A DNA stretch of 64,000 nt from Anaerolineales bacterium (GTDB lineage Bacteria > Chloroflexota > Anaerolineae > JAAEKA01): NCBI GenBank assembly GCA_034432445.1, contig DAOUBX010000204.1, positions 2,143 to 66,142 of the forward strand, written 5' to 3'. The notes under the pieces are model-generated. The model saw only the letters and a list, made by a program, of their open reading frames with translations, had not been told where the DNA came from and searched no databases. The number at the start of each line of letters is the position of its first letter. Position 1 is the first letter of the stretch. Both the position numbers and the translations under genes were made by a program. Shown here in pieces: positions 1 through 63,344 of the stretch.

Positions 1-652
1 AAGTCCTGCCCTTGACGCCAGTAGTGCTCGACGATGTTGGCCAGCAGAATGTGTTCGCGGCTGCGCACGGGGTCCGCCTCGATACCGATCAAACCCAGCA
101 AGGCACTCACCGTGCCGCTGACGCGCTCGCGCAAGGCCTCTTGCTCATCCTCCCAACTGAGCTTGGGAGCGGCAAAGGAGCTGAGGATGCTGACCGGCAG
201 GCCGGCGTCCGAGCCCGGGGTGTAGATCAGGAAGTCGGCACTCTCTTTGAGCAGGCGAATCCGTTCTGGCCCTTGTCCCCAATCAGCCAGCCCCTTGGCC
301 CAGGTTTCGGCCTGCTTGGCGGCATAAGCCTCGGGCGTCATGTCTTTGCGCCGGGCATCGTCGATGTTGATCCAGGGCAGGAAGTCCTCCGGCTGCAGAT
401 TGGGGAAGGTCAGCAGCAGGTTGGTGATGTCGCCCTTGGGGTCGATGATGATCATCGGCACCTGGTCAATGGCTGCCTCCTCCATCAAGTCGATGCAGAG
501 ACCGGTCTTGCCGCTACCGGTCATCCCTACGCAAACAGCGTGCGTTGTCAGATCGCGCGCATCGTACATCACCGGCGTATCTTTCAGTTGGCCGGCTTGC
601 AAGTCATACTCTTTGCCAAGATAGAATACGCCCAGGCGCTCAGGGATAGACA
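1..652 (-). CDS. HerA/FtsK-like P-loop ATPase (DUF87-type), N-terminal part only; the gene runs off the window start
   Basis: Reverse-strand translation from the ATG at 652 gives [21 protein letters not shown]...[36 protein letters not shown]. Walker [10 protein letters not shown] followed by a hydrophobic strand ending in D is typical of HerA/VirB4-like ATPases. It is absent from the ORF track because there is no stop inside the window. Confidence 0.5.
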
Positions 653-688
653 TGGCCCACGCTCCGGAAAAGGTTAAAAGGTGAATAT

Positions 689-783
689 CTAGGTGCCGGG
701 TATTGGGACCCACGACCGGTTTGCAGCGGAAGTCGGCTCAGCGGACACCCTTCCCAACGCAGACTCAAGTGCCCGGCACCTAG
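689..783. repeat. MITE/REP-like intergenic element, copy A, with perfect 12-bp TIRs CTAGGTGCCGGG / CCCGGCACCTAG
   Basis: The termini are exact reverse complements. The internal sequence (CGACCGGTTTGC..GTCGGCTC.GCGGACACCC..CAGACTCA.GTGCCCGGCACCTA) recurs at about 14587, 17037, 19705, 25651, 33918, 50547 and 50784. Confidence 0.7.
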
Positions 784-916
784 AGCTGAAAGCTGAATGA
801 AAGTGGAAAGAGACTCGTACTGGTGGCGGCGCCTATTATAACACAACTGGACATCGGCGAAAAAGCAAAGGTGATACAAGAGGACTCCACACTGTGGCCA
901 TGGCACTCCGAAGCGA

Positions 917-1339
917 TTACTCGATGGGGGGGTGCCACTGACGGGCAATCCACAAGATGCGCGCCTCGACCACGTACTCATTGTTCATCCGCAACGCCAG
1001 GACGGTGGCGCGGCCGGTGGCGGTCAAACCCACGATGTGAGTGCCCCCGTTGGCCCAGGCCAAGTGTTCCCTCCAACTGTCAGCGCGGGGATTAAACAGC
1101 GGGACGAATTCGCTGGTCAGTGGGTCCAACCCGTGGGTCTTGCTCCCCTTGTACTCGTTGCAGCGATAACACGCAGCGCAGAGGTTCCCGATGTCGTCAC
1201 GGCCGCCCAGCACCTTGGGATAGATGTGATCGACCACCAGTGGCATGCCGATCACGCGGCGCGATGTCAGACAGTACTCGCAGCGATGTCCTGCTCGCTC
1301 GAAAACCTGCTGGCGCAGCACATCCGACAAAACCGCCAT
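917..1339 (-). CDS. HNH endonuclease (McrA-like)
   Basis: 140 aa. HNH motif: CEYC ... VDHIYPKVLGG ... NLCAACYRCNEYKG (Cys4 zinc-binding plus catalytic His). Confidence 0.8.
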   Translation of the reverse strand: MAVLSDVLRQQVFERAGHRCEYCLTSRRVIGMPLVVDHIYPKVLGGRDDIGNLCAACYRCNEYKGSKTHGLDPLTSEFVPLFNPRADSWREHLAWANGGTHIVGLTATGRATVLALRMNNEYVVEARILWIARQWHPPIE

Positions 1340-1342
1340 CGT

Positions 1343-1765
1343 TCACTCCAACGGAAGATCGTCTAGCCTTGGTGTTGCTACGCCGCGCCAGCGCATGACT
1401 GACCAGGCATAGGCTTTGCGCACCATCAAGCGGTCGGCAGCCAGACGCAGTTCCTTCAGTTCCTCTTGCTCGACTGGTGTAAGGTCACCAGCACTGTTCT
1501 TCTCCAGCAACTCAAGATGACGCGCTTGGTCGTCCGGGGGGATCTGTTGCGCAGCAATTCGGCTCAACTGCTCGACGGACATAACCTGCATCGCGAGAAG
1601 CTCATCGCTCATCTCGGCCGGCGCAGTTGCGACCGATGGGGGCAGATTGCCCTCGACGCTTTGGCGCACCACCTGCTCTAGCGGCCGCTTGGTTGCGATG
1701 GCAACCTGGCTCAGGTAGCTGAAGACTGGTTCAGGCAGTTGTAGAGTCACGCTCGTTGAAGTCAT
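1343..1765 (-). CDS. Hypothetical protein with a possible N-terminal ribbon-helix-helix, then a helical C-terminus; translationally adjacent to the HNH gene
   Basis: 140 aa ORF with no competing frame. N-terminus VTLQLPEPVFSYLSQVAIATKRPLEQVVRQSV has a beta-alpha-alpha RHH-like pattern. Its stop lies 3 nt from the HNH start. Confidence 0.45.
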   Translation of the reverse strand: MTSTSVTLQLPEPVFSYLSQVAIATKRPLEQVVRQSVEGNLPPSVATAPAEMSDELLAMQVMSVEQLSRIAAQQIPPDDQARHLELLEKNSAGDLTPVEQEELKELRLAADRLMVRKAYAWSVMRWRGVATPRLDDLPLE

Positions 1766-2027: not shown

Positions 2028-2042
2028 GCTTGTGTAACTCAA

Positions 2043-2199
2043 TGACATGCAGGGGAGCCGGGGTGCGCCCGGCTGAGAGGGTGAGCCGCTCTGCTCACCG
2101 ACCCTTCGAACCTGACCTGGGTAATGCCGGCGTAGGGATGCACCGATCCAGCACGAGCAAGGCCGTCTGCCGTAACCAGGCAGGCGGCCTTTTCTGTTG
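2043..2199 (+). ncRNA. TPP (THI-box) riboswitch: aptamer plus intrinsic-terminator expression platform
   Basis: Conserved THI elements GGGGTGCGCCCGGCTGAGAGG...ACCCTTCGAACCTGACCTGGGTAATGCCGGCGTAGGGA. These are followed by hairpin GGCCGTCTGCC-GTAACCA-GGCAGGCGGCC plus TTTTCTGTT, immediately upstream of thiamine-salvage genes. Confidence 0.9.
2160..2199 (+). terminator. Rho-independent terminator forming the OFF state of the TPP riboswitch
   Basis: 11-bp GC-rich stem (GGCCGTCTGCC/GGCAGGCGGCC), a 7-nt loop and a U-tract. Confidence 0.7.
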
Positions 2200-2215: not shown

Positions 2216-2869
2216 ATGCGCGCATTTGTAGTGGCCAGCAGTCCCCAATCTGCACCGCCCGCTGACCATTGTCCGCAGCCGGGCGATCTGGTTATTGCCG
2301 CCGATGGCGGAGCCAACTTGTGTCGCGCCTGGGGATGGCCGGTGGACTTGGTGGTGGGCGATATGGACTCGGTGGACGCCGAGGTCAAAGCCGAGCTGCA
2401 CAGCCAAGGTGTGCCATTTCATGTCTACCCGGCCGACAAGGACGAGACCGATCTGGAACTGAGTTTGCGCCTGGCCCTGGCGGCCCAGCCGGCCGAGATC
2501 CTCATTGCCGGCGCTCTGGGCGCGCGCATCGATCACACTCTCGGTAATCTGGCGTTGCTGGCCCTGCCGGAGCTCGCGGCTGCGCGCGCTAGCATCGTGG
2601 ATGGTAACCAAACCATCTGGCTGACGCGTGGCCGCCTCGAGGTCAACGGCAGGCCGGGCGACACGCTGTCGCTGCTGCCGTTCGGCGGCGATGCCTGTGG
2701 CGTCAACATCCGCGGTGTGCGCTGGCCGTTGCAAGGGGCCAACCTGCCGCTGGGGCCTTCGCTGGGCATCAGCAACCGGCTCACCCATGACTGCGCCGAG
2801 GTCGGTGTGCAAGAGGGGACTCTCCTGGTCATTCATATTCGCAAGAGCGGAAAGGAGAAGGAACCATGA
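2216..2869 (+). CDS. thiN: Thiamine pyrophosphokinase (thiamine diphosphokinase)
   Basis: 217 aa with GDxDS signature VVGDMDSV and a TPK catalytic/thiamine-binding domain pattern. Sits directly downstream of the TPP riboswitch. Confidence 0.8.
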
Positions 2870-3963
2870 CCAAGCGAATACACTTACTGCTGGCCCTGGC
2901 GCTGATTGGAGCAGCCTTGGCGGCATGTGGGCCGCAATATGCGGGAGCGCCGGCTGCGCAGCCGCTGCGTGGGGCGACGCCGCAGCCGGTGGTGTTGATG
3001 TCGCACGACAGCTTTGCCGTCAGTGAAGAAGTGATACGCCAGTTCGAGACTGCCAACAACGCCAAGGTGGAATTCCTGAAGGCTGGCGACGCCGGCGAAG
3101 CGCTCAACAAAGCTTGCCTGAGCAAGGACAACCCCCTGGCCGACGTCTTCTTCGGCGTGGACAACACCTTCCTCAGCCGCGCCATCCAGTGCGACATCTT
3201 TGCGCCGTATCAGTCGCCGGCCTTGGCGGACATCCCCGATGAACTGGAGATCGATCCCAGCCATCGCTTGCTGCCGGTGGACTTCGGCTACGTCAACCTG
3301 AACTACGACCGGCGTTGGTTCGAGGAGAAGGGCTTGGCTGTGCCGCAGGCACTCGAGGATTTGACCAAACCCGAGTACAAGGGCTTGCTGGTCGTGCAAA
3401 ATCCGGCCACATCCTCGCCTGGCCTGGCCTTTCTCTTGACCACCGTGGCCCACTTCGGCGAGGAAGGGCCCTACACCTACCTGGACTTCTGGCGCGATCT
3501 GCGCGCCAACGACGTTCTAGTCACCGACGGCTGGAGCGAGGCTTATTTCAGCCACTTCACCGTGGGCAGCGGCGGTGAGGGCGATCGGCCCTTGGTTGTG
3601 AGCTACGCCACCAGCCCGCCCGCCGATGTCTACTACAGCGAAGGCGCCAAGAGCGAGCCAGACAGCGGCAACATCTCGCCTGCCAACGGCGTGTTCCGCC
3701 AGGTGGAGTTCGTCGGAATTCTCAAGGGTACGTCGCAACGCAGCCTGGCCGAGAAGCTGGTTGATTTCATGCTCGGTCAGACTTTCCAGGAGGACATTCC
3801 CCTCCAGATGTTCGTCTATCCGGCCAACCAGCGGGCCGCGCTGCCCGATCTTTTCACCCAGTTCGCCCAGGTGCCGACCCAGCCGGTGCAGATAAACCCT
3901 GAGGAAATCGAGGCCAACCGCGAGCGCTGGATCGAGGCATGGCTGGAGACGGTCGTGCGCTAA
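2866..3963 (+). CDS. Thiamine/TPP ABC transporter substrate-binding lipoprotein (TbpA/ThiB-like)
   Basis: 365 aa. Lipoprotein signal [21 protein letters not shown]. Periplasmic-binding-protein fold. GGAGAAGGA RBS. Overlaps the TPK stop by 4 bp. Confidence 0.8.
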
Positions 3964-4114
3964 ATCCGCTGCCGCCGACCAACCCGCTCAGGCAGGTCTG
4001 CGGAATGCGCCCACCACAAGCAAGCATCCCAAGCCAAGCCGGCGACTGCTCGTCGCCGGCTTGGCTGCCAGTCGTCGTTTGACTAGAGCAACAACGATTG
4101 CCTCTCGATCTGTC

Positions 4115-5809
4115 ATGACCCCTGCGTCGCATCGCGTCAACCCACTCACCTATCTGCTCTACGCCCTGCCGCTGGCCTTTATGGCCATCTTCTACTTTTA
4201 CCCTTTGCTGAGCATCCTGGGCTTGGGGCTGGCGCCAGAAGGGAAGGTGGACCTGAGCGGTTTTGCGGCGTTGGTGGAGCGACCCTACCTCGGTCGCGTC
4301 CTGTGGTTCACCGCGTGGCAAGCGCTGCTTTCCACGGCGCTCACGCTTCTGCTGGGCTTGCCCGCGGCATACGTGTTTGCCCACTACGAGTTTCCCGGCA
4401 AGAACTTGCTGCGCGCGCTGACGACCATCCCTTTCGTCATGCCTACAGTGGTCGTGGCTGCGGCCTTTGCCACGCTGCTGGGGCCACGCGGCCTGCTCAA
4501 CCAGTGGCTCATGGCTGCGTTCGGCCTGGCCCGTCCCCCCATCGACCTCCTGTACACGATCTGGATTATCCTCCTGGCGCACGTGTTCTACAACACCACG
4601 GTGATCGTGCGCATCGTTGGCGACTTCTGGGCCAACCTAGATCCACACCTCGGCGAGGCGGCTGCCATCCTGGGTGCCCATCGTGGCCGCGTGCTGCGCG
4701 AGATAACCTTGCCGCTGTTGCTCCCCTCGATCATCGCCGCGGGTCTGCTGGTGTTCCTCTTCTGCTTCACCAGCTTTGGCGTGATCCTGATCCTAGGGGG
4801 GCCGCGCTACGCCACGCTGGAGGTAGAGATCTACTACCAGGCAGTGAACCTCTTCAACCTGCCGCTGGCGGCGGCGCTGTCGTTGGTGCAACTGGCGATA
4901 ACCTTCAGCGTCATGGTGGTCTACACACGTCTGCAGGCGCGCGCCTCGCTGCCGCTCAACTTGCGGCCGCGCGCCAGCATTGCACGACGACCGGCCAACT
5001 GGCGGGAATGGCTGGCCGTGGGCGCGGTCATCACCCTGCTCTCGGCCGTCCTGCTGACGCCGCTCTTCGCCCTGGCCTGGCGCTCCGTGACCCTGGGGGC
5101 AGGTCCGCCCTCGCTGCGCTACTACCAGGCACTTACCGTCAACCGCAGTCAGGACATCTTCTTCGTGCCGCCGGTACAGGCCATCCGCAACTCGCTGGCG
5201 TTTTCTGTGCTGGCCACGGCGCTGGCCCTGGTCCTGGGGCTGATCAGCAGCTACATGCTCATCGCGCCGGGCCGCGTGGCCGGCCGGCTGGCGCGCTGGT
5301 TGGACCCGATCCTGCTGCTGCCGCTGGGCACCTCAGCGGTCACCCTTGGCCTGGGCTATATCGTCGCCCTCGACGCGCCACCGCTGAACTTGCGCACCTC
5401 GCTGGCCCTCATCCCGCTGGCCTATACGCTGATTGCTATGCCCTTCGTGGTGCGCTCGCTGCTGCCGGCCCTGCGCAGCCTCGATCCCGGCTTGCGCGAG
5501 GCAGCTGCAGTGCTAGGCGCTGCACCGACGCGCGTCATCCGCGAGGTCGATCTGCCGATTGTTGGCCGCGCGGTGCTGGTGGCCGGCGTGTTTGCCTTCA
5601 CGATCAGCCTGGGCGAGTTCGGCGCCACGCTGCTGCTCTATCAGCCGCGCTTTCCGACCATGTCGGTGGTGATCTATCGCGCCTTGAGCCAGCCCGGACT
5701 GCTCAACTACGGCCAGGCTCTGGCCATGAGCACGCTGCTGATGCTGGTGTGCATTGGTGGCCTATTGGTCATTGAGCGCTTTCGCGTCGGCGGTGTGGGA
5801 GAGTTCTAA
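4115..5809 (+). CDS. ABC transporter permease, two fused BPD_transp_1 domains (ThiP-like thiamine permease)
   Basis: The ORF track gives 4061..5809. ATG at 4115 (MTPASHRVNPLTYLLYALPLAF...) is the likely start. About 12 TM segments with two EAA-like loops. Confidence 0.8.
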   Translation: MTPASHRVNPLTYLLYALPLAFMAIFYFYPLLSILGLGLAPEGKVDLSGFAALVERPYLGRVLWFTAWQALLSTALTLLLGLPAAYVFAHYEFPGKNLLRALTTIPFVMPTVVVAAAFATLLGPRGLLNQWLMAAFGLARPPIDLLYTIWIILLAHVFYNTTVIVRIVGDFWANLDPHLGEAAAILGAHRGRVLREITLPLLLPSIIAAGLLVFLFCFTSFGVILILGGPRYATLEVEIYYQAVNLFNLPLAAALSLVQLAITFSVMVVYTRLQARASLPLNLRPRASIARRPANWREWLAVGAVITLLSAVLLTPLFALAWRSVTLGAGPPSLRYYQALTVNRSQDIFFVPPVQAIRNSLAFSVLATALALVLGLISSYMLIAPGRVAGRLARWLDPILLLPLGTSAVTLGLGYIVALDAPPLNLRTSLALIPLAYTLIAMPFVVRSLLPALRSLDPGLREAAAVLGAAPTRVIREVDLPIVGRAVLVAGVFAFTISLGEFGATLLLYQPRFPTMSVVIYRALSQPGLLNYGQALAMSTLLMLVCIGGLLVIERFRVGGVGEF

Positions 5810-6915
5810 TGCCTTTGCTAGAAGTTCGCGGCGTAACCAAGTCCTTTGGCTCGACGCCGGTGTTGCACGCCATTTCATTCGCCGTAGAGGCGGGCGAGAT
5901 CTTGTGTCTGCTCGGTCCGTCGGGATGCGGCAAGACCACCCTGTTGCGCATTGTCGCCGGGCTAGAACATGCCGATGCTGGCGCGGTGTTGTGCGACGGG
6001 CGGGACTTGGCGGCCACGCCGGCGCACCGCCGGGGCTTCGGTCTGATGTTCCAGGACTACGCGCTTTTCCCGCACAAGAGCGTGGCCGAGAACATCGCCT
6101 TTGGACTGCGCATGGCCGGGCAGGATCGGCCAACCATTCAGCAACGCGTTGCCGCCATGCTCGACCTCGTCAATCTGACAGGATACGACGAGCGCCGCGT
6201 GCACGAGCTTTCCGGCGGCGAGCAACAACGGGTGGCCCTGGCGCGCAGCCTGGCGCCTAGCCCGCGGCTGCTGATGCTCGATGAGCCGCTGGGCTCGCTG
6301 GACCGCACTCTGCGCGAGGAACTGATGACCGAGCTGCGGCGCATCCTCAAACAGATCGGCATGACGGCGCTTTACGTCACCCACGACCAACAAGAGGCCT
6401 TTGCCATCGCCGATCGGGTGTTGATCCTCAACGCCGGCCGCATCGAGCAGCAAGGAACGCCCCTTGCGGTCTACCGGCGACCGGCCAGCCGCTTCGTCGC
6501 GCACTTCTTAGGCATGCACAATCTCTTGCCCGGGGTGCTGCTGACGGATGCCCCGCAACCGGCGGTTGCCACGCCCATTGGAACGCTGGCTTGCGCCGGC
6601 TGCAGCGAGCCGATCGCAGCCGGCGCTGCGGTCACCGTGCTGGTGCGGCCGGATGCTGCGGCGCTCTTGCCGGCCGCCAGCCAATCCTCTGGGCCCAACT
6701 GTGTACAAGGCGCGCTGGCAGACTTCTCCTTTCGCGGCAGCCAGGTCAAGCTAACGGTTGACTGCGGCTTGCACACTCGCCTGACCTTCGAGCTGCCAGG
6801 CGCCAGCGCCAGCGCACTGCCGGCGCTCGGCCAGCCTGTAGCGCTCTTCCTTGATCAAGAAGGGGTTACGCTGCTGCCGGCTGATGAGCCACAGGCCTCG
6901 ACCATTCAGCAATAG
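5809..6915 (+). CDS. ABC transporter ATP-binding protein (ThiQ/PotA-like, with C-terminal TOBE-like domain)
   Basis: Walker A LLGPSGCGKTT, ABC signature LSGGEQQRVALARSL, Walker B LLMLDEP. Start overlaps the permease stop. Confidence 0.85.
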   Translation: MPLLEVRGVTKSFGSTPVLHAISFAVEAGEILCLLGPSGCGKTTLLRIVAGLEHADAGAVLCDGRDLAATPAHRRGFGLMFQDYALFPHKSVAENIAFGLRMAGQDRPTIQQRVAAMLDLVNLTGYDERRVHELSGGEQQRVALARSLAPSPRLLMLDEPLGSLDRTLREELMTELRRILKQIGMTALYVTHDQQEAFAIADRVLILNAGRIEQQGTPLAVYRRPASRFVAHFLGMHNLLPGVLLTDAPQPAVATPIGTLACAGCSEPIAAGAAVTVLVRPDAAALLPAASQSSGPNCVQGALADFSFRGSQVKLTVDCGLHTRLTFELPGASASALPALGQPVALFLDQEGVTLLPADEPQASTIQQ

Positions 6916-7058
6916 AAGCCGGGCGCTTGGATCCGCGCTTGCAACGGCGTCTGTCAAGCCGATACAGGCTCCACGGCTGCCAGCGCCTGCTGTCTGAGCC
7001 GCAACGGCTAAAGCTGCTTGGGGAGTGCTGTTCTTGGCTCGGTAAGTTAGCAAATATA

Positions 7059-9787: not shown

Positions 9788-10247
9788 AGTCGTCCTGGCT
9801 CCCTTGTCGATCGGTGAACAACGATGCTGCGTGGATCGCGGGTGTCCACGTTCTTGACGATGTCGCTGACGCTGAGCGCTGCGCCGCATCCATCAAGTCT
9901 ACATCTATGTTGACGCATCCATGCAGCAAAAGTCGCGCGCTTTTTGGCTTACAGCAAAAATACATAGCCAAAAATTCACTACCACCTATGCAGGTGGTGG
10001 GCACGTACGACCCGTCTACGGTGGGCAGCAGCTTTGCAGGCGCTGCTGTCAACGCCGATTACCCACCACGAGCCAAAGCACCTACTCCTGAACGTTGTCT
10101 TTCAAGCCAGATGGTGGGCTCGGTATGCAGTTCTTGTCAGATGGAGAAGCCACCGGGGTGCAATGAGGGAAGGTCGAGAAGTGGCTTACGCCAAGTATAG
10201 CACAGCCAGCGCCGACAGGCAAGAGAAAGGGCAAACTTGCCGGCGCC

Positions 10248-14531: not shown

Positions 14532-14586
14532 GATAGCTCACGCACAGCAACAAGATGGGCAAACAGACGATGCTGGGTAACTCTAT

Positions 14587-14698
14587 CCAGGTGCCGGCCA
14601 TAGGGAGCCATCCGGGAGGGACGTGCGACCGGTTTGCTGCCCGAGTCGGCTCTGCGGACACCCTAGCAAACCCAGACTCACGTGCCCGACACCATTGG
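14587..14698. repeat. MITE/REP-like element, copy B
   Basis: AGGTGCCGG...CGACCGGTTTGCTGCCCGAGTCGGCTCTGCGGACACCCTAGCAAACCCAGACTCACGTGCCCGACACCATTGG. It lies in the intergenic gap between the DUF58 and MoxR genes. Confidence 0.65.
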
Positions 14699-14782
14699 CT
14701 GAATGGTTACGCTGTTTGCCAAACGCTAACTGAACAATGCGCACAGAACGCTGACAACGGCTCAAGCCATGCCATCCGAGGG

Positions 14783-16115: not shown

Positions 16116-17030
16116 ATGAATTCACTACACCCAAATAAAACCGAGCTGTCTAGCCCTGCAGTGATCGATTACGAGGGGTCTGACTATCAAGAGCGTTTTT
16201 GGGAGCAAGGCGGTCGCGCCTACGAGGATCTGGCGGAGCGCATTGCCCTGCGCAAGCTGCTGCCGGCCAAGGGACGCCGCCTGGTCGAGTTCGGCGCTGC
16301 CTTTGGCCGCCTGGCCGACCTATACGACGGATACGATCAAGTGGTGCTCCTGGACTACTCGCGCTCTCTACTGCGCCAAGCGCAGGCGCGCCTAGGCGTG
16401 GGAGGGCGCTTCGTTTATGTGGCGGCAAACCTCTATCGGCTGCCTTTGGCCGAGGGCGTGGTCGACACGGCGGTGATGGTGCGCGTCATGCACCACCTAG
16501 CGGACGTGCCAGCCGCGCTGGCGCAGATTCGCCGCGCCGTGGCGCCAGGCGGCGTGTTCGTCGCCGAGTACGCCAGCAAGCGCCACCTGAAAGCCATTGT
16601 ACGCTACGCCCTGCGCCGGCAGGCGTGGAGCCCCTTCACCCACACGCCCTACGAGTTTGTCCCCTTGAACTTCGACTTTCACCCTGCTTGGATGACTGAG
16701 CAACTGCGCCAGGCCGGCTTTCGCATCGACCGCGAGCGGGCTGTATCGCACTTCCGCCTGCCGTTGCTCAAGCGCCTGTTCTCTCCCCAGGCGCTGGCCG
16801 CGGCGGACGGAGCCGTTCAGGGGATCGGAGCGCTGTGGAAGCTGACTCCCAGCGTCTTCGTGCGTTGCACAGTCCTCGGTACCCGACCAGACAGCCTGCC
16901 GGCAGAGCTGTTTCAGTGCCCTGAGTGCGCCGGCCGGCTGACAACGGGCGTCGACAGCCTGGACTGCACGCGCTGCGGCCGGCGTTGGTCGACCCGCGAC
17001 GCACTGTACGACTTCAAGGAACCGCTGTAA
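16116..17030 (+). CDS. Class I SAM-dependent methyltransferase with C-terminal Zn-ribbon (CxxC...CxxC)
   Basis: Motif I LVEFGAAFGRLADL, motif post-I VVLLDYS. C-terminal CPECAGRL...CTRCGRRW zinc ribbon. Confidence 0.7.
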   Translation: MNSLHPNKTELSSPAVIDYEGSDYQERFWEQGGRAYEDLAERIALRKLLPAKGRRLVEFGAAFGRLADLYDGYDQVVLLDYSRSLLRQAQARLGVGGRFVYVAANLYRLPLAEGVVDTAVMVRVMHHLADVPAALAQIRRAVAPGGVFVAEYASKRHLKAIVRYALRRQAWSPFTHTPYEFVPLNFDFHPAWMTEQLRQAGFRIDRERAVSHFRLPLLKRLFSPQALAAADGAVQGIGALWKLTPSVFVRCTVLGTRPDSLPAELFQCPECAGRLTTGVDSLDCTRCGRRWSTRDALYDFKEPL

Positions 17031-17036
17031 CTGCTT

Positions 17037-17075
17037 GGGTGCCGGGCACTTGTGAGCGCATTGCGCCGCCGCAGG
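17037..17075. repeat. Partial MITE/REP-like element, 5' end only (copy H)
   Basis: GGGTGCCGGGCACTTGTGAGCGCATTGCGCCGCC resembles the TIR-proximal end of the family. Confidence 0.35.
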
Positions 17076-19704: not shown

Positions 19705-19756
19705 GTCTGCAAGGAATTTGGGCCGGCAAGGATTTCAGGTGTCCGGCACCTATAGC
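19705..19756. repeat. Partial MITE/REP-like element, 3' half (copy G)
   Basis: ...CAGGTGTCCGGCACCTATAGCTGG matches the 3' TIR region of the family. Confidence 0.4.
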
Positions 19757-19786
19757 TGGCCAAACAAACCTTAAAAATGACCCAAG

Positions 19787-25639: not shown

Positions 25640-25650
25640 CTCGTAACTGC

Positions 25651-25740
25651 TTAGGTGGCGGACACTCGTGAGCGATGCCTAGCCCACGTTGGCTGTGCAG
25701 ACACGTTCGCAAACCTCACTCCAAGTGTCCGCACCTATGG
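25651..25740. repeat. MITE/REP-like element, variant subfamily (copy E), TIR AGGTGGCGGACAC / GTGTCCGCACCTA
   Basis: Inverted termini and internal TGCAGACACGTTCGCAAAC core shared with copy D at about 50600. Confidence 0.55.
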
Positions 25741-25776
25741 CTGAGAACTTACTCCAAGTCGTTGTTTACAGAGGCC

Positions 25777-32836: not shown

Positions 32837-33712
32837 CTAGACCTCCGGCGAGCTGCCGGCGTCGCGCATTGCAAGAAAGGCCAGAAACTTGTCGATTTCC
32901 CCGTCATCCATGGCGTAGGTGTGCTCGTCGGCTGGGAAACGCCGAGCTACAACGTCATCTTTGTATTCCAGCAGCGCACGTTCGATCTCGGCCGCAGCGT
33001 TGGCATACTTCCTAACGAACTTGGGCACGAACCTGTCAAACAGGCCGACCAGATCATGAAAGACCAGCACCTGGCCATCGCACCCGGCGCCGGCGCCGAT
33101 GCCGATGGTGGGAATGCGCAGGCGCTGCGAGATCGCTTCGGCCACAGGCGCCGGCACAGCCTCCAGCACGATCGAGAAACAGCCCGCCTCCTGCAAAGCT
33201 AGGGCGTCATCCAAGAGCTTCTGCGCTGCGGCGGCGGTCTTGCCCTGCACGCGATACCCGCCCAGCGCTGAGATGGACTGCGGCGTTAGGCCAATATGTC
33301 CCTGCACCGGGATGCCAGCCGCTACGATGGCGCGAATGACGGCGGTCACCTCCCGGCCGCCCTCCAGCTTGACCGCGTCCATGCCACCTTCTTTGAGGAA
33401 TCGGACAGCGTTGCGCACAGCCTCTTGCGGCGAGAGCTCGTAGCTGCCAAACGGCATGTCGCCGATCAGAAAAGGAGACTTGGCACCGCGAGCAACGGCC
33501 TGACAGTGATGGATCATGGCGTCCATGGTGACAGGCACCGTGCTCTCGTAGCCAAGCACCACCATGCCCAGCGAGTCGCCAACCAACAGCACATCGATGC
33601 CGGCGCGTTCGACCAGAAGCGCGCCGGGGTAATCGTAGGCTGTGACCATCGTGATCGGCTCGCCCCGCTCTTTCTTGCTTTGCAACGCGTGGATTGTGAC
33701 TTTCTTAGCCAT
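32837..33712 (-). CDS. panB: 3-methyl-2-oxobutanoate hydroxymethyltransferase
   Basis: MAKKVTIHALQSKKERGEPITMVTAYDYPGALLVERAGIDVLLVGDSLGMVVLGYESTVPVTMD... is canonical PanB. The track ORF includes a short N-extension from an alternative start. Confidence 0.9.
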   Translation of the reverse strand: MAKKVTIHALQSKKERGEPITMVTAYDYPGALLVERAGIDVLLVGDSLGMVVLGYESTVPVTMDAMIHHCQAVARGAKSPFLIGDMPFGSYELSPQEAVRNAVRFLKEGGMDAVKLEGGREVTAVIRAIVAAGIPVQGHIGLTPQSISALGGYRVQGKTAAAAQKLLDDALALQEAGCFSIVLEAVPAPVAEAISQRLRIPTIGIGAGAGCDGQVLVFHDLVGLFDRFVPKFVRKYANAAAEIERALLEYKDDVVARRFPADEHTYAMDDGEIDKFLAFLAMRDAGSSPEV

Positions 33713-33917
33713 CGGTTGCATCCTTCTGCGCCCAGACAACAAGCGTGTTCAATTGCCAATTGCGGCAACCCACCGAACGGGTAGCCTCAGGTTCAGGGGC
33801 TGCATTGTATGTCAGGCCAGGAGCCATGTCAACCTGAGCATACTGAGCACGAATCCCGCAGTCCCTTTGGCCCGGAGAATTGCCAAAGCCATGCGCGGTG
33901 AACGTAGGATTCAGCCG

Positions 33918-34028
33918 CAGGTGCCGGGCACTTGAGCCTGCGTTTGCCAGGGTGTCCGCAGAGCCGACTCAAGCAGCAACCCGGTCGCAAGTTCCTCTGG
34001 GGCAGTCCCCATGCCCGGCCCCTGAATA
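33918..34028. repeat. MITE/REP-like element, copy C (inverted orientation)
   Basis: CAGGTGCCGGGCACTTGAGCCTGCGTTTGCCAGGGTGTCCGCAGAGCCGACTCAAGCAGCAACCCGGTCG... is the reverse complement of the copy A/B core. Confidence 0.65.
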
Positions 34029-34057
34029 GGACGCTAGGGCGGCGAAACGAGTCACAC

Positions 34058-38315: not shown

Positions 38316-39761
38316 CTACGGCCATTCCCACGGCAGCGTGTTCTGGTAGATCCAGGCCATTGTATGCATGGCGCTGACCGCGGTCAACATCAGCCCAGCC
38401 TCGGCCAACTGGCCGCGATCCGGTAGAACGCGGGGGAGCAAACGGGCGAGCCACAACGTGCTGGGGATGGCCGCCAGGCTGAACAGATCCCAATCGCGCT
38501 GGCCGCCGTAGTCAGGGTTCCACACCCAGGTGAACAACCAGTAGAGCCCTGTGCAAAGCGCCAGAAACGCTAACGCGCGGCCTTCGCGGCCTGCTGCGAC
38601 ACGCTCTGTCTTAACGGAGCGGGACTCCGCCAGCAGCGCCACACCAACGATCAGCAAACCGCCCAGCGTCACCGGCGCCGTCAACATCTGCATGTTCAGC
38701 CAATCTAGCAGGTGCGCCCAGGAGAACATGGTGTAGCGTTCCCAACGTGTGGTGACCGCGGTCAACGGCACGAACCACCGCGCATCGCCGCCGCCTGGCC
38801 GGTCCGTCGTGACCAAGGTGGCCAGCCCATGCCCACTGAGCTCCATCAACAGGATTACACCGCCGGCCACCACCGCCATCGGCCAAGCCACCTGCCCCAC
38901 CGCCAACCACCACACCCTCCCCCCTTTTCCTTTCTCGTCTTGTGCCCACGCCCACGCCACGTACAACAGCGCCGGCGCCAATACGATCGTCGAAGGGTGC
39001 AGCCCGTGGGTGATGGCCAGAGCCAGCGCCGGCTGCCACAACGCCCGTCGTCCGGCAAGCGTCTCCAGGGCCAGCCAGAGGAAGATCAGGACACCCGCAG
39101 CGGCCAGGCTGTAGTTCTCGGCATAGCCGAAGAAGAGCTGCATCACGCCCAACGTGCCCATCAGTCCGACGATCAGCCCCTTCTCGGTACGGTTGCGGCC
39201 GATGCTGTCGGCCAGACGCAGCAAACCATAGACGTACACCGCGCCGGCCAGTGGGCTGAGGATGCGATACACGGGCCAGGCGTCGGCCCAGCCAAAGGCC
39301 GCGTTGCCCAATGCCCACAGCCGTGCGTGCAGCCACACATCGAGCGGCGCCTGCCACGTGGCTGTGATGCGCAGGGCAGGATCGGGATAGGCGATGCCGT
39401 TAACCAGAATGTAGGCGTCGCCCCAGCGGGTGTGGACGATGCGCAAGAGGTAGAAGGGAATGAGGGACAGCAGGGAAAGGAGAGCAAAGAAGCGAGGGCG
39501 AGCGTGCGGCGGAATGCGGAAGCGGTCGGCGCGTCGGCGCAGCCGACGCAACATGCGGGAGGCAAGCGGGCGAGCGCAGGTCAAGGCAGTCGCAATGGCC
39601 AGCAACCAGCGCCACAGCGGAGGGAGATAGGTGAACGACCAAAGGCCCCAAGCGTCAGCCTCAGACAACAGCGGCGCTACCAAATGCAGGCCAACGATGG
39701 CCAGACACATCACGCGCAGGGCGGTCAACATGCGCTCGCCATAGGACGGTGAAAAGGACAT
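38316..39761 (-). CDS. Large polytopic membrane protein of unknown function
   Basis: Start chosen at MSFSPSYGERM, just downstream of the nnr stop. The track ORF start at 39980 would overlap nnr. About 12 TM helices. Confidence 0.5.
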   Translation of the reverse strand: MSFSPSYGERMLTALRVMCLAIVGLHLVAPLLSEADAWGLWSFTYLPPLWRWLLAIATALTCARPLASRMLRRLRRRADRFRIPPHARPRFFALLSLLSLIPFYLLRIVHTRWGDAYILVNGIAYPDPALRITATWQAPLDVWLHARLWALGNAAFGWADAWPVYRILSPLAGAVYVYGLLRLADSIGRNRTEKGLIVGLMGTLGVMQLFFGYAENYSLAAAGVLIFLWLALETLAGRRALWQPALALAITHGLHPSTIVLAPALLYVAWAWAQDEKGKGGRVWWLAVGQVAWPMAVVAGGVILLMELSGHGLATLVTTDRPGGGDARWFVPLTAVTTRWERYTMFSWAHLLDWLNMQMLTAPVTLGGLLIVGVALLAESRSVKTERVAAGREGRALAFLALCTGLYWLFTWVWNPDYGGQRDWDLFSLAAIPSTLWLARLLPRVLPDRGQLAEAGLMLTAVSAMHTMAWIYQNTLPWEWP

Positions 39762-39789
39762 AGGCTGTCTAGCAGGCTCGGCCAGACCT

Positions 39790-41631
39790 TCAAGCCGCCC
39801 GGAGCTGGCGGATAGCCTGCGGCAGGCGGCTGAGCAAATCGCCGGCTGTGACGCCGGCCTCACCGAGGTCGCGGCGGGCCAGCTCGCCAGCCAAGCCGTG
39901 CAGATAGCCGCCGAGCACTGCGGCCTCGAACGGCGCAACGCCCTGCGCCAACACGCCGACGATAGCGCCGGCCAGCACATCGCCGCTGCCGGCCGTGGCC
40001 AGGGCCGGGTTGGCGAAGGGCAGCACCACCGCCTGCCCGTCGGGCGCGGCGATCACGGTGTAGGCGCCCTTGAGCAGCACGATCTGGCGCCATTCGGCCG
40101 CCTTGCGCCGAGCCAAGCCCAGCCGGTCGCGGCGCACCTCGGCCGTGGAGCAGCCGCACAGCCGCGCCATCTCGCCCGGGTGGGGCGTGAGGATGCTGCC
40201 GGCCGTTGCTTGTTCGTGCCAGCGCTCCACCTGCGCCAACGCGTTGAGCGCGTCGGCGTCGATCACCAGCGGCAGGCGCAGCTCGGCCAGGGTGGTCGGG
40301 GCCAGCGAGGCGCCGCGGTTGCTGCTCATGATGCCAAAGCCTTGTTCGCGGTGACCCTGTTCAGCAACGGGGGCGGCCGCAGGCTGCGCCGCAACGCCGC
40401 TCAGAAAACCGGCCCCTTTCTTGCGCTCGCTGCCGACTCCTAACAGCCGATGAACAAACTGCACGGCCTCCTTTTCTTGGGTCAGGCCGGGGCCCACCAA
40501 CAGCGCAGCATAGCCGGCTGCGTTTTCCAGCAAGACCTTGACGGCGTCCGGGCTGAGCACGCCCATCGTCTCGGGCAGGAGCAGCCACGTGGACTCCACC
40601 AGCCCGGCGGCTAGAATCGGGTGCAACGAGCCGGCCACGCCCAGCGTGACCAGTCCTGCGCCCACGCGGTAGGCCGCGGCCGCAGCCAGATGCGCCGCGC
40701 CGGTGTAGTTGGCCGAGCCGGCCACGATCATGGCCTTGCCAAAAGTGCCCTTGTGCGCGTCGAGCGGCCGCGGCGGCAGCAAGGTCTTCGCCCATGCCGG
40801 TGTGGCCAGTTGCACCACAACGTCTTCGGCCAGGGCGGGGTCGGTGCCGATGTCAGCCACCTCTAGCCGGCCGCAGGCTGCCGGCCCGTCGCCAACAAAA
40901 TGCCCCACCTTGGGGTTGGCAAAGGTCACGGTCAGGTCAGCGCGCAGCGCAGCCGGGTCTAGCCAACCCGTATCGCAGTTCAGCCCGCTGGGGCAGTCCA
41001 CGGCCACCACCTGCGGCAACGCTCGTTCGGTATACAGCGGCAGATGAAGAAAGTCGAAATCCGCCACAGGCTGCAACGCCAAGGCTGCGCTGTGCGAGTT
41101 AATCGGTTCGGCCTCCGCCGCGTCCAGTTCATCGAGCGCTGCTTCCTGCTGCGCGACACGGTCGGCCAGCCCGTGTCGCACGGCTGCTAGCAGCTCGGCC
41201 AGCGCCCCGCTGATGGGCCGGGAGACGCCGGTGCCCAGCAACGCGTCGATCACCACGTCGGCGTCCAGCAGCAGCTCTTGCAGCTGGGCCAGCTCGGGGT
41301 CTTGCTCGGCGTGAACGATGGGAATCCGCAGCCGGCGCAGCGCGTCGTAGTTGGCGTCGCCCTCGGCGTTGCGCTTCCAGCAGTAGACCGTCACTGACCG
41401 CTTGGGATCCCACTGATGCAGATAGCGCGCCGCAACGAGGCCATCGCCGCCGTTGTTGCCCGGCCCGGCCAACACCAGCACGCCGCCCTCGCTGTCCCAC
41501 GGGTGCATGTGGCGCAGCACGGCAGCGGCCACAGCCCGACCGGCCAGCTCCATCATGGCGTCGTAAGAATGTCCGGCCGCATCGGACGCCCGCTCGATGC
41601 GCACCATCTCGGCCACAGTTACGATTTTCAT
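39790..41631 (-). CDS. nnr: Bifunctional NAD(P)H-hydrate repair enzyme Nnr (YjeF-N epimerase + ADP-dependent dehydratase), with about 90-aa insertion
   Basis: N-terminal MKIVTVAEMVRIERASDAAGHSYDAMMELAGRAVAAAV...AGPGNNGGDGLVAARYL. C-terminal carbohydrate-kinase-like dehydratase domain (...GSGDVLAGAIVGVLAQG). Confidence 0.85.
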   Translation of the reverse strand: MKIVTVAEMVRIERASDAAGHSYDAMMELAGRAVAAAVLRHMHPWDSEGGVLVLAGPGNNGGDGLVAARYLHQWDPKRSVTVYCWKRNAEGDANYDALRRLRIPIVHAEQDPELAQLQELLLDADVVIDALLGTGVSRPISGALAELLAAVRHGLADRVAQQEAALDELDAAEAEPINSHSAALALQPVADFDFLHLPLYTERALPQVVAVDCPSGLNCDTGWLDPAALRADLTVTFANPKVGHFVGDGPAACGRLEVADIGTDPALAEDVVVQLATPAWAKTLLPPRPLDAHKGTFGKAMIVAGSANYTGAAHLAAAAAYRVGAGLVTLGVAGSLHPILAAGLVESTWLLLPETMGVLSPDAVKVLLENAAGYAALLVGPGLTQEKEAVQFVHRLLGVGSERKKGAGFLSGVAAQPAAAPVAEQGHREQGFGIMSSNRGASLAPTTLAELRLPLVIDADALNALAQVERWHEQATAGSILTPHPGEMARLCGCSTAEVRRDRLGLARRKAAEWRQIVLLKGAYTVIAAPDGQAVVLPFANPALATAGSGDVLAGAIVGVLAQGVAPFEAAVLGGYLHGLAGELARRDLGEAGVTAGDLLSRLPQAIRQLRAA

Positions 41632-42239
41632 TGCAATGTTGGGTGAGTGATCTTTGGATGCAGTTCCGCTAACCGTAATAGGCAGCGATCTAGGCTGGCG
41701 GCGCGTCGTCTGGCAGCTTCAATGTTCCAGCGTTGTGCTACGAAGGCTTGCATCTCGCTGACATAACCTGGCCCCACGACAGCCGAAATCCCTTGCTGGG
41801 GAACAAGTGCTTGTGCAGCCTTACGGCGGCTGCGCCGGGCGAGATTGACAAGGGTCTGCTTGGGATCGGCCAGGCGCTCCGGGTCATCAGGCACAACTGC
41901 GCCTGAGATGCCAAGAAGACTCCCGATTCCTAGGTGGTCGGCTAACAGCCAGCTTTCGATCTCGTTGACGACCACGCGTAGCAGGAGTTTTGAACTCCGA
42001 TTGGGCAACCAGGCCGGTAGCACCGCCGGTGGGCAATCGAGGCCGGTATCCATGAAGTCCACCAGCATCAGCATGGGATTGCCGTAGCTGGCTCGAACAT
42101 TGAACCCGGCCACTTTCTGACGGAGATACGACACGCCTTGCTTGCCGAACGTTGTACCCGCTTGATGGCCCGTGTGGTGGATCAAGCGCCGTGCAACAGC
42201 TTCGTCCAGCGGTCCTTCGACCAGAATATCGATAACCAT
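41628..42239 (-). CDS. DUF4276-like protein (predicted Toprim-like partner of the upstream ATPase)
   Basis: 203 aa. N-terminal MVIDILVEGPLDE (conserved Glu in a Toprim-like strand) and downstream acidic cluster MLMLVDFMDTGLD. Start shares 1 nt with the ATPase stop. Stop overlaps the nnr start. Confidence 0.55.
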   Translation of the reverse strand: MVIDILVEGPLDEAVARRLIHHTGHQAGTTFGKQGVSYLRQKVAGFNVRASYGNPMLMLVDFMDTGLDCPPAVLPAWLPNRSSKLLLRVVVNEIESWLLADHLGIGSLLGISGAVVPDDPERLADPKQTLVNLARRSRRKAAQALVPQQGISAVVGPGYVSEMQAFVAQRWNIEAARRRAASLDRCLLRLAELHPKITHPTLQ

Positions 42240-43372
42240 CAGCCGAACTCAAGGGCAAGCTGTTCGACGTTCTGGGGAGCCGCCTTGGGCATCAGCACAT
42301 CGGCCACCGTTAGCCCAGCTCGTAATGCCTGGCGGTCTGCCTCATCGACTGGTGCAAACACCGTGCCATCGGAGCTTGGTTCCAGACGCAGAACTTCCTC
42401 GCTGCCGATGCTCGGATCTGACAGCAAGTCTTCGGAATGGGTCGAGATGATCATCTGTCGGGGTGCCTTGAGTTGACGGTTCATGCGGTGGAGCACTGCC
42501 GGTAGGCGACGCACAATCTCCGGATGTAGCGAGATCTCTGGCTCCTCTAGCAACAGGGGACCTGATCCATCGAAAGCTGTCCAAAGCAGCCCCAGTAGTC
42601 TGAGTGTGCCATCTGAGAATTGGCTCTCGTTTTGTCTGGCTGCGTGGGGGCGCCAATGGGAGTAACCGCCTTCCAAGTGAGGCACGCCTGCGTCATCCAT
42701 GACCGCTCTCAACTCTGTGAGTTGCGGCACAGCAATCCGAAGCGCTTGAGAAATCTTGCGTAGACGAGCATCGCGCGTCTTGACAGGTGTTTGCCATAAT
42801 CGCAGCAGCAGGTCGCGGCCGTAAGGATCATTCGACACTGGCAGAGGCGAAAACCCGCGCGGATCACGTACGACCTGCGGCAGCAGGTGCTGGTAGGAAA
42901 TCGACTTGAAGAAGTCAGCCAGTTCCCGAAAGTCCTGGTTGGCGGAAATCTGCTGCAATGCTGTTTGGGTCAAACGAACTGGATCGCGCTGATCCTGCTG
43001 ATCAGGCCGATCAAGGATTTTGATGCTGTTCCTCCATACTGTTTCGCTCTTAACCGTGGCACGCCGCTGTTGGTCCTGGTTGAATACCAGTCGGTATTTC
43101 CAATCAGCGATTCCTGGATCCGCCACGTCGACTTCGATCAAGATGTCGCTGTGGCGCGTGGCCGACAGACAGCGAACTGTCGAAACGCCGCCGCGTCCAT
43201 CGATAGCCTTTTCCAAACCATCCAAGGCCACATCGCGCAAAAAGCGAAAAGCATCCAGCAAATTGGACTTCCCCGAGGCGTTGGGGCCGATGATAAATAC
43301 CCGAAGTTGTAAGGGAGCCTCGACGTTCTTGAAGTTCTTCCAGTTGCGCAATTTGATGCGGCTAAAATGCAT
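42239..43372 (-). CDS. AAA_21/ABC-type ATPase (OLD/AriA/GajA-like ATP-binding protein)
   Basis: Start at MHFSRIKLRNWKNFKN, preceded by GGAGGAGGG RBS. Walker A IIGPNASGKSNLLDA. C-terminal H-loop ISTHSEDLL. Long coiled/insert region between them as in SMC-like AAA_21 proteins. Confidence 0.75.
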   Translation of the reverse strand: MHFSRIKLRNWKNFKNVEAPLQLRVFIIGPNASGKSNLLDAFRFLRDVALDGLEKAIDGRGGVSTVRCLSATRHSDILIEVDVADPGIADWKYRLVFNQDQQRRATVKSETVWRNSIKILDRPDQQDQRDPVRLTQTALQQISANQDFRELADFFKSISYQHLLPQVVRDPRGFSPLPVSNDPYGRDLLLRLWQTPVKTRDARLRKISQALRIAVPQLTELRAVMDDAGVPHLEGGYSHWRPHAARQNESQFSDGTLRLLGLLWTAFDGSGPLLLEEPEISLHPEIVRRLPAVLHRMNRQLKAPRQMIISTHSEDLLSDPSIGSEEVLRLEPSSDGTVFAPVDEADRQALRAGLTVADVLMPKAAPQNVEQLALEFG

Positions 43373-43393
43373 AGCTCCCTCCTCCAAAGGTTG

Positions 43394-50511: not shown

Positions 50512-50546
50512 AGTCCGGCTCCCTTCAGGGTGCAAAATGGCAACTG

Positions 50547-50645
50547 CTCAGGCGCCTAGCATTGGAAACCATGGGCAATTGGCGCCTGAGTTGGTTTTGC
50601 AGACACGTTTGCAAACGAGAATCCAAGCGCCCAGCACCTGTGGCG
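50547..50645. repeat. MITE/REP-like element, variant subfamily (copy D), TIR CTCAGGCGCC / GGCGCCTGAG
   Basis: Core TTGCAGACACGTTTGCAAAC shared with copy E. 3' end CCCAGCACCTGTGG. Confidence 0.5.
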
Positions 50646-50783
50646 CTTGTGCAGAGAACAAGCGCCGCCATTATAACACAGCACTCCCGACGTTGTCCAC
50701 GAAAAAAGGGCTGCGGCCCGCAGGTTCCGTGGCGGAACCTAACGGGGCCGCAGCCCTTGTAGGCTTGTTTTGGGTAACTCTTC

Positions 50784-50892
50784 AGGTGCCGGGCATTGGA
50801 GACCGACCCGGAGGGGCTAGCGCCCGGTTGGCTGCTTAAGTCGGCTCTGCAAACACCATAGCAAAGGCAGACGCACGTGCCCGGCACCTATG
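50784..50892. repeat. MITE/REP-like element, full-length copy F
   Basis: CAGGTGCCGGGCATTGGAGACCGACCCGG...GTCGGCTCTGCAAACACCATAGCAAAGGCAGACGCACGTGCCCGGCACCTATGG. Both TIRs are present. It lies about 140 bp from copy D in the same mccB-dnaK intergenic region. Confidence 0.65.
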
Positions 50893-50935
50893 GTTGAACA
50901 GTTAGTCCGTTGTTACGCTGAGGCGGCTTGCCGTG

Positions 50936-59444: not shown

Positions 59445-59454
59445 ACGGTCGGCT

Positions 59455-63054: not shown

Positions 63055-63344
63055 ACGACTACCTCAATCAGCCCCGCAGCCAGCAAGTCCTCGGCGAACG
63101 CCAGCACATCAGCGGCTGCCAGCTCCGGCGTCACCTCGTACTCCTCAACCAGGCTATCGGCCAACTCTTGCAAGGTGCGGCTACCATCGGCCAACGCCCA
63201 CAGCCGGCTACCCGACTCGTTGAGCATGCGCACGCGCGCCTGGCTGGGGGTGACCAACACCGCTTCCTCGCCAACTGTGCCCGCGACGACATCGGGGCAG
63301 TGTTTGATGCGACTACCTAAGGACAGAGGGGTGAATGCACTCAT
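63051..63344 (-). CDS. PqqD-family protein (RiPP recognition element-type peptide chaperone)
   Basis: 97 aa. GEEAVLVTPSQARVRMLNESGSRLWALADGSRTLQELADSLVEEYEVTPELAAADVLAFAEDLLAAGLI is a textbook PqqD/RRE pattern. Stop overlaps the downstream C25 start by 4 nt. Confidence 0.8.
   Translation of the reverse strand: MSAFTPLSLGSRIKHCPDVVAGTVGEEAVLVTPSQARVRMLNESGSRLWALADGSRTLQELADSLVEEYEVTPELAAADVLAFAEDLLAAGLIEVVV

Follow-up and report, generated by a model that had tools for sequence, protein, structure and literature searches.

A probable MITE-like family of short inverted-repeat elements in the intergenic DNA of a Caldilineales-like Chloroflexota genome

What kind of repeat recurs between the genes of a 64-kb stretch of DNA from a Chloroflexota bacterium, and by what route did it come to be there? 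The stretch analyzed here (64,000 nt, hereafter the window) encodes proteins whose best named relatives lie in Caldilineales, Caldilineaceae, and Anaerolineae MAGs, and the host is, judged by these sequences, a Caldilineales-like Chloroflexota MAG. An earlier note on this DNA had proposed a family of non-autonomous, MITE/REP-like repeats in its intergenic gaps. One repeat family is present in the window, with eight full-length copies (A to G, and J) and two fragments (H and I). The full-length copies measure 108–134 bp between homologous boundaries and share 67–84% pairwise identity. All 10 copies lie in intergenic DNA, as had been claimed, and they occupy ~1.05 kb, or ~17%, of the ~6.3 kb of intergenic sequence (10% of the window).

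The reality of the family is borne out by blastn, by a profile HMM, and by a covariance model. In an all-against-all blastn of the 25 intergenic gaps of the window, the best pair was B and D (E = 2e-17, 89% over 70 nt), and no other repeat family of note was found among the gaps. A repeat scan of the window grouped 705–790, 14618–14703, and 50813–50898 as direct copies, with 33910–34011 as their inverted counterpart (78–85% complementarity over 78–102 nt); it also tied in 25688–25730, 50590–50632 and, unexpectedly, 6909–6973. The profile HMM was trained on the six clear copies A–F, and it recovered the four members outside the training set, G at E = 2.5e-9, I at 0.0045, J at 0.027, and H at 0.12. 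Run over every position of the window, the covariance model gave eight strong matches, including the untrained copy G at E = 2e-10; the score of J is circular, as J was in the training set of this model, and H and I score weakly (E = 0.7 and E = 5, respectively). Eight copies are statistically solid, and the fragments H and I were accepted as members because of their intergenic location and their match to the element ends. A further covariance-model match at 33130–33203 (minus strand, E = 0.006) falls in the panB coding sequence and was treated as a chance GC-rich hairpin. Each of the eight places listed in the earlier note does hold a copy or fragment (A, B, H, I, E, D, F, and C) with the coordinates correctly given, but two copies, G (6898–7006) and J (9981–10099), had been missed. 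Repeats of a different sort occur within genes: purine-rich 9-nt tandem repeats (GGAAAGGAG-like) lie at 46570–46626 in a YfhO-like membrane protein gene (45953–48580), and a similar purine-rich stretch is found at 39449–39487 inside the ORF 38316–39980.

Copies A–D make up the first of two subfamilies (subfamily I). Copy A (680–797, plus strand; HMM E = 8.6e-31, covariance model 120 bits, fold z = -3.9) lacks a 15-nt internal segment and lies between the stop of an HNH gene (917) and the start of a HerA-like gene (653), downstream of a -10-like TGTGTTATAAT (845–835, minus strand). Copy B (14578–14716, plus strand; HMM E = 3.5e-30) spans 134 bp from GTAAC to GTTAC within the spacer that separates a MoxR stop (14783) from a DUF58 start (14531). 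Copy C (50773–50905, plus strand; HMM E = 2.5e-30, fold z = -3.8) is 132 bp long and follows the dnaK stop (50936) and precedes the intrinsic terminator of dnaK (50756–50702), which puts it in the dnaK 3′ UTR. Copy D (33903–34034, minus strand; HMM E = 5.3e-30) lies in the gap from the argJ stop (34058) to the panB promoter (33832–33804). The genes beside copy A (1–1765, minus strand) encode a small HNH endonuclease with PtuB-like matches (917–1339), a 140-aa ORF (1343–1765), and a HerA/FtsK-like ATPase (1–653, truncated at the window edge); together these may make up a defense-type module, which is not associated with the other copies. A candidate two-gene anti-phage system, HEC-01, lies among housekeeping genes at 41628–43387 (minus strand), with HEC-01A (42239–43387, an AAA_21 ATPase) found by PADLOC at E = 1e-143 and HEC-01B (41628–42239) at E = 5e-54.

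Subfamily II comprises E, F, and G. Copy E (25642–25752, plus strand; HMM E = 1.2e-23, fold z = -2.8 and -4.0) is 110 bp long, has the arms GGTGGCGGACAC / GTGTCCGCACC, and lies between the stop of a GT2 gene (25777) and the start of a radical-SAM gene. Copy F (50539–50650, plus strand; HMM E = 6.7e-25), in which the end pairing is degraded, occupies the predicted 5′ UTR of the methylcrotonyl-CoA carboxylase beta gene (mccB), between a promoter-like site at 50699–50670 and the ATG at 50511, a start codon set from 536-aa homologs. The diverged copy G (6898–7006, minus strand) overlaps with its end the TAG stop (6913–6915) of an ABC-transporter ATPase gene (5809–6915). That gene ends a locus in which a TPP riboswitch (2041–2156, plus strand; Rfam RF00059, 65.8 bits) and then a 13-bp terminator-like hairpin (2159–2191) precede a thiamin pyrophosphokinase gene and a thiamin-type ABC importer (2216–6915). 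Copy J (9981–10099, plus strand) stands apart as the most divergent; its arms, GGTGGTGGG / CCCACCAC, carry compensatory changes relative to the remaining copies, and it lies between an EamA gene stop (10248) and a TetR gene start. Fragment H (17026–17067, plus strand) retains just the left end, which matches that of E at 88% over 32 nt, and its GTAAC contains the TAA stop (17028–17030) of a methyltransferase gene (16116–17030). Fragment I (19726–19764, plus strand), between two UvrD-like helicase genes, is a collapsed copy in which, on the minus strand, two end pieces abut (CAGCTATAGGTGCCGG|ACACCTGAAATCC) and the interior is lost.

When the ends are aligned, the full unit starts GTAACTNNTYAGGTGCCGGGCA and ends TGCCCGGCACCTAYGGYTGAAYRGTTAC, with limits at GTAACT and RGTTAC (ends GTAACT...AGGTGCCGGGCA). 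The inverted ends are 22–28 nt long; within them, the perfect 12-nt inverted ends reported for copy A, CTAGGTGCCGGG, are found at 689–700 on the plus strand and 772–783 on the minus strand. Pairing of the ends extends over 18 of 19 nt in A and over 9 + 12 nt with a 6-nt bulge in C, and is degraded in F, G, and J. The right arm is longer by 5–6 bases (CCATA or equivalent, on the complementary strand) between the outer TTCAG and inner GGTGCC blocks, an asymmetry that is kept in both subfamilies and forms a bulge when the unit is folded. Between the arms lies a non-palindromic conserved core, AGTCGGCTCTGCGGACACC..GCAAAC in A–D and GTTGGYTNTGCAGACACGTTYGCAAAC in E and F. The core first described, GTCGGCTC(T/A)GC(G/A)(G/A)ACACC, is correct for A–D and does not extend to the remaining copies. 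Likewise, the two subfamilies that had been drawn from the arms do exist, but the GGCGGACAC / GTGTCCGC arms are confined to E, and the core is the better divider. Pairwise identity is 78–84% among A–D, 74–80% among E, F, and G, and 67–78% otherwise. No coding capacity was noted in the elements, some of which are overlapped by inconsistent chance ORFs only. Two apparent target duplications at copy A were set aside: the CTAG at both of its ends (an IS5-type duplication) belongs to the inverted repeat, as the other copies reveal, and a 9/10 direct repeat flanking it (AAAGGTGAAT / AAAGCTGAAT) probably represents the element's own diverged ends.

Folded singly, copies A, C, E, and F are more stable than shuffled sequences on at least one strand (z from -2.8 to -4.0), and B and D fold no better than shuffled sequences. 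In the model-fitted alignment, 85% of stem cells pair, vs. 29–40% when the partner columns are slid, and seven stem pairs have changed on both sides; this count is moderate evidence only, because the alignment was itself fitted to the structure. Compensatory events can also be seen by eye, with a G-C to A-T replacement in E, and C-G to T-A and C-G to G-C replacements in J.

Contigs of the same species from other sequencing runs are 98.8–99.2% identical to the window over up to 22 kb, and two from SRR7903765 are 100% identical; other read sets with this species are SRR32105342, SRR32105346, SRR32105347, SRR32105351, and SRR32105373. All copies are found at the same places in these contigs, at 98.8–100% identity (A, B, E, H, and I being exactly placed), with no presence/absence polymorphism among them. 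About 1 kb of same-species sequence beyond the window edges contains no copy. The nearest other organism (contigs L112, L113, and L116) has 87% amino-acid identity in PcrA and 90% in DnaK, and ~80% identity in DNA. At E<0.4, no family copy was found in the ~39 kb of these three contigs, in L027 (84% MoxR identity), or in contigs L022–L026, nor in the 891 kb of related loci in total, which comprise ~45 kb of the nearest relatives and ~0.85 Mb of more distant Chloroflexota-type loci; three loci with 94–95% MccB identity also have none. The family-free Caldilineales-type contigs carry other intergenic repeats (L022 5014–5213 and 1319–1415; L025 1329–1440; L024 2615–2719 and 13544–13775), which include tandem 7–8-nt units (CACCCAGT, ATCACCG, GTCACCY), GTAACNC-based palindromes, and an 80–88-nt tandem hairpin repeat. 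A separate gene group is also shared with other contigs: at 57180–63993 (minus strand), a PqqD-like gene (63051–63344) adjoins a gene whose annotation in the identical contig L115 is ScmC-like; two Peptidase_C25 paralogs (60583–63054 and 57180–59444) come next, and the same C25 pair recurs in L116. These genes could constitute a peptide-maturation cluster.

Searches of wider collections likewise returned no member. An exact-pattern scan with the subfamily I core across 185,579 species genomes (a collection without this species) gave 21 matches where ~35 were estimated by chance, and none of the seven inspected, which included all those from Burkholderiales/Betaproteobacteria and the only twice-matched genome, is the element. 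The Burkholderiales and Rhizobacter matches (L008 1–177 and L013 127–277, two contigs of a Burkholderiales MAG; L021 5838–5950, a Rhizobacter MAG) have in common an identical stretch of 113 nt or more, and were rejected as chance matches to the core pattern within apparently unrelated DNA, either a mobile repeat or an integration-site sequence. A pattern that fits five of seven window copies had no matches in a metagenome collection without this species, pattern scans of viral collections had none either, and blastn of copy C against plasmid and phage collections returned chance-level matches only (E ≥ 2). At Rfam gathering thresholds, the TPP riboswitch was the sole match in the window, and permissive Rfam scans of two element-bearing gaps placed nothing on the elements. 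The distribution suggests, as far as these sequence collections go, that the family is restricted to one lineage, and it appears to be without earlier description.

Three orthologous sites, those of B, I, and C, are empty in relatives and have their flanking landmarks conserved. At site B, the MoxR stop and the DUF58 start are 6 nt apart in L027 (CTG TGA GCTGCC ATG) vs. 251 nt in the window, and short MoxR-DUF58 spacers are seen in more distant relatives as well. The ancestral TGAGCTATCATG (TGA-spacer-ATG) is intact beside DUF58 in the window; 245 nt including copy B now stand between it and the MoxR coding sequence, now terminated by a new TAG. Since these 245 nt exceed the element, one clean insertion does not account for the gap. 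At site I, the spacer of the helicase pair is 84 nt in L112 vs. 229 nt in the window, with the first 34 nt in common, up to the fragment. At site C, the dnaK intrinsic terminator (window 50702–50756, minus strand; L116 10293–10345) is a long GC-rich hairpin followed by TTTTTT, and because its sequence is conserved in the relative with 90% DnaK identity, the empty site can be compared: the distance from the dnaK stop to the terminator is 37 nt in L116 vs. 178 nt in the window, the latter made up of a 38-nt spacer, the 132-bp element, and 8 nt. The exact insertion breakpoints are unreadable at the empty sites, as the relatives are only ~80% identical in DNA. The insertions are old, given that same-species contigs do not differ in which copies they hold.

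The flanks of the copies hint at how insertion took place. In copy E, the sequences TCCAACTC and TCCAAGTC on either side are 7/8 identical, and the 8-mers at homologous boundaries agree at 5/8 positions in B, 4/8 in C, 2/8 in D, and 1/8 in G. Summed, the agreement comes to 19/40; mismatched pairings of left and right flanks average 12.25, and none of 44 derangements reaches 19. This signal comes from five copies and one of five lengths tested, with none at 6, 10, or 12 nt, and D and G do not carry it. On these flanks, an 8-bp target duplication that has since decayed is suggested.

Copy F has a promoter-like TGGACA-18-TATAAT (with an upstream TG, 11/12 match) on one side and the mccB start on the other, and copy A lies downstream of a TGTGTTATAAT that by eye closely resembles the promoter of F. 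On the minus strand, the promoters before A (835–845) and F (50673–50683) both consist of TGTGTTATAAT and then a GGCG-rich stretch, which may be an extended -10 consensus of the organism or a piece of an older common segment. The panB promoter next to D is conserved, B, E, and I lie between co-directional genes, and G and H each run into the stop codon of the gene before them. The copies are predicted to be in 5′ UTRs (F and probably A), 3′ UTRs (C, D, and G), and operon spacers (B, E, and I). Nine gaps have co-directional genes on both sides, and in eight of them the copy is oriented alike with respect to transcription (two-sided binomial p ~0.04); D is the only exception, and G, which alone lies between plus-strand genes, is inverted to match. 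On the strand transcribed in those eight copies, the consensus folds at -20.9 kcal/mol vs. -13.4 kcal/mol on the opposite strand.

Considered together, the family is probably an old, lineage-restricted, non-autonomous MITE-like element that is passively co-transcribed in UTRs. A MITE is a short (<~300 bp) non-coding unit in multiple interspersed copies, a description that fits the family, as do its terminal inverted repeats and the insertion evidence from the three empty orthologous sites. The reading of the repeats as non-autonomous elements had already been offered, and is strengthened by the inverted ends, the intergenic placement without noted coding capacity, the relatives free of the family, and the empty sites. 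In the proposed course of events, the unit would fold as a whole into a long hairpin with the conserved 5–6-nt bulge and a non-palindromic core, and would have spread in the lineage of one Caldilineales-like species by transposition into intergenic DNA. Transposition would be catalyzed in trans by an enzyme encoded outside the 64-kb window, and insertion may have been accompanied by an 8-bp target duplication. The burst would be old, since the copies differ by 16–33%, truncated and collapsed forms occur, and every copy is fixed in the strains sampled, and the copies would now drift like neutral intergenic DNA. Passive co-transcription would follow from the positions in 5′ and 3′ UTRs and operon spacers, and an orientation-dependent tolerance within transcripts probably explains why eight of nine copies face the same way. 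Several observations count against this reading. Besides the limits of the flank signal, the oversized gap at site B, and the unreadable breakpoints described above, and the arm changes and bulge taken up below, a transposase or parent IS is not found in the 64-kb window (in agreement with the note, none of the ~47 window proteins is a transposase by Pfam), and current mobility is unproven given the uniform copy content of the strains.

Known bacterial MITEs include Correia/NEMIS in Neisseria, ERIC/IRU in enterobacteria, RUP in Streptococcus pneumoniae, and MITEAba12 in Acinetobacter. Like these, the units of the window are ~100–150 bp, non-coding, and bounded by terminal inverted repeats that fold into a long hairpin; they are interspersed in intergenic DNA, often within transcription units, are restricted to a species or genus, and include subfamilies and internally deleted variants. 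A target duplication is suggested as well. Unlike known MITEs, the family had no sequence relative in the plasmid, phage, viral, genome, and metagenome searches, its ends differ by the conserved 5–6-nt insertion, its arms show compensatory changes, and its host is a Chloroflexota (Caldilineales-like) MAG. The comparison also draws on two papers (PMC3184786; PMC6382973).

Were two identical double-stranded ends simply recognized by a protein, neither compensatory changes in the arms (E and J) nor a conserved bulge would be expected. These features fit a mechanism or function in which a folded single strand is required. A strand-specific, hairpin-dependent element, spread or retained through a folded single strand of DNA or RNA by an HUH-type or other recombinase and/or as a co-opted mRNA-stability module of UTRs, would explain the compensatory changes, the asymmetric bulge, and the orientation bias of 8/9, and may be regarded as a possible if rather unlikely account of the family as a whole.

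Another alternative invokes REP or REPIN sequences, in which the hairpin is recognized as single-stranded DNA and spread, with no target duplication, by a domesticated HUH tyrosine transposase (RAYT or TIRYT) encoded elsewhere. According to PMC3733652, a REP is a 20–40-nt palindrome tagged at one end by GTAG (or CGTC), and both GTAG-type REPs and RAYT-like genes set between long inverted repeats are reported from several phyla including Chloroflexi. REP/REPIN sequences (PMC3116915; PMC3733652) are, like the family, hairpin-forming and lineage-specific intergenic repeats that are often co-transcribed, and their pairing is maintained by compensatory change. The ~110–135-nt hairpin unit matches a REPIN in total length, pairing of the arms in E and J is preserved by compensatory changes, the 5–6-nt bulge is conserved across subfamilies, the orientation is biased (8/9, p ~0.04), and the evidence for a target duplication is no more than suggestive. 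However, the arms of the family carry a variable NYAG (CTAG, CCAG, TCAG, TTAG, or GCAG) rather than a conserved GTAG/CGTC tag, with GTAG in J only; they are not free-standing palindromes of 20–40 nt, single REP units are not seen, and the long conserved non-palindromic core is unlike the interior of REPIN doublets. Pfam scans found no Y1/HUH transposase or RAYT in the window, and the 8-mer signal in the flanks argues for a staggered-cut (DDE-type) insertion. A REP/REPIN origin is judged unlikely. Of the earlier label of MITE/REP-like, the first half suits the units better than the second, as they measure 110–135 bp with inverted ends of 22–28 nt and are not tagged palindromes of 20–40 nt.

The third alternative is that the copies are functional, structured RNA modules of UTRs (stabilizers, processing or protein-binding sites, or antisense small RNAs) that are kept by selection and not by mobility. 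Their placement in predicted 5′ UTRs, 3′ UTRs, and operon spacers, the common orientation of 8/9 relative to transcription, the stabler consensus fold on the strand transcribed in those eight, and some covariation speak for such a role. However, copy by copy both strands fold about equally well, none of the relatives compared has the family and three orthologous sites are empty, and F, G, H, and I are truncated, collapsed, or degraded. The genes downstream have no function in common (HerA-like ATPase, DUF58, helicase, radical SAM, carboxylase, and TetR), which together with the lack of conservation in relatives led to rejection of a riboswitch or cis-regulator. An intrinsic terminator was also rejected, as no U-tract follows the hairpin and copy C lies upstream of the real dnaK terminator, and the elements have no Rfam match. 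Between the window and the 98.8%-identical strain, substitutions amount to 1.04% in coding sequence (208/19,939), 2.2% in the elements (10/461), and 2.6% in other intergenic DNA (48/1,830). Element divergence between strains is as fast as that of other intergenic DNA, with no sign, in these small numbers, that the elements are more constrained than their surroundings. Selected RNA modules are judged an unlikely explanation.

Integrons hold cassette arrays in which each cassette ends in an attC, usually beside intI, with core sites RYYYAAC and GTTRRRY; chromosomal integrons contain species-specific attC families such as the Vibrio cholerae repeats. Those repeats are, like the family, imperfect inverted repeats of ~120 bp with bulged bases and a high copy number in one species, and the GTAAC...GTTAC ends of the family resemble the attC R″ and R′ boxes. 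Although a size of ~110–135 bp, imperfect inverted ends with a bulge, TAAC / GTTA-like termini, and one predominant orientation would suit a chromosomal cassette array or an attC cluster without integrase, this reading is effectively refuted by gene content and synteny and has next to no probability, as the units are dispersed over 50 kb without cassette-like spacing between conserved housekeeping operons (dnaK, moxR-DUF58, panB, argJ, and helicases) that are syntenic with unit-free relatives, no integrase or other tyrosine recombinase is found in the window, the ends NNGTAAC / GTTACNN fit the core-site consensus only in part, and the interior is conserved between copies.

As a MITE-like family, then, the repeats are an ordinary kind of miniature selfish DNA element, and they leave the current understanding of mobile DNA unchanged. 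Interspersed repeats of this kind appear to be little documented in Chloroflexota, as none of the literature among the matches listed pairs MITEs with this phylum. A cataloged family would be useful for several reasons: the element breaks assemblies of uncultured Caldilineales MAGs, it can mislead gene calling (two copies provide stop codons or overlap them, and chance ORFs cross several copies), and it can serve as a strain- or species-specific marker. If the density of the window held genome-wide, an extrapolation, a genome of a few Mb would contain several hundred copies. The family would then make up a sizeable share of the intergenic DNA of this organism, with possible effects on the ends of its mRNAs.
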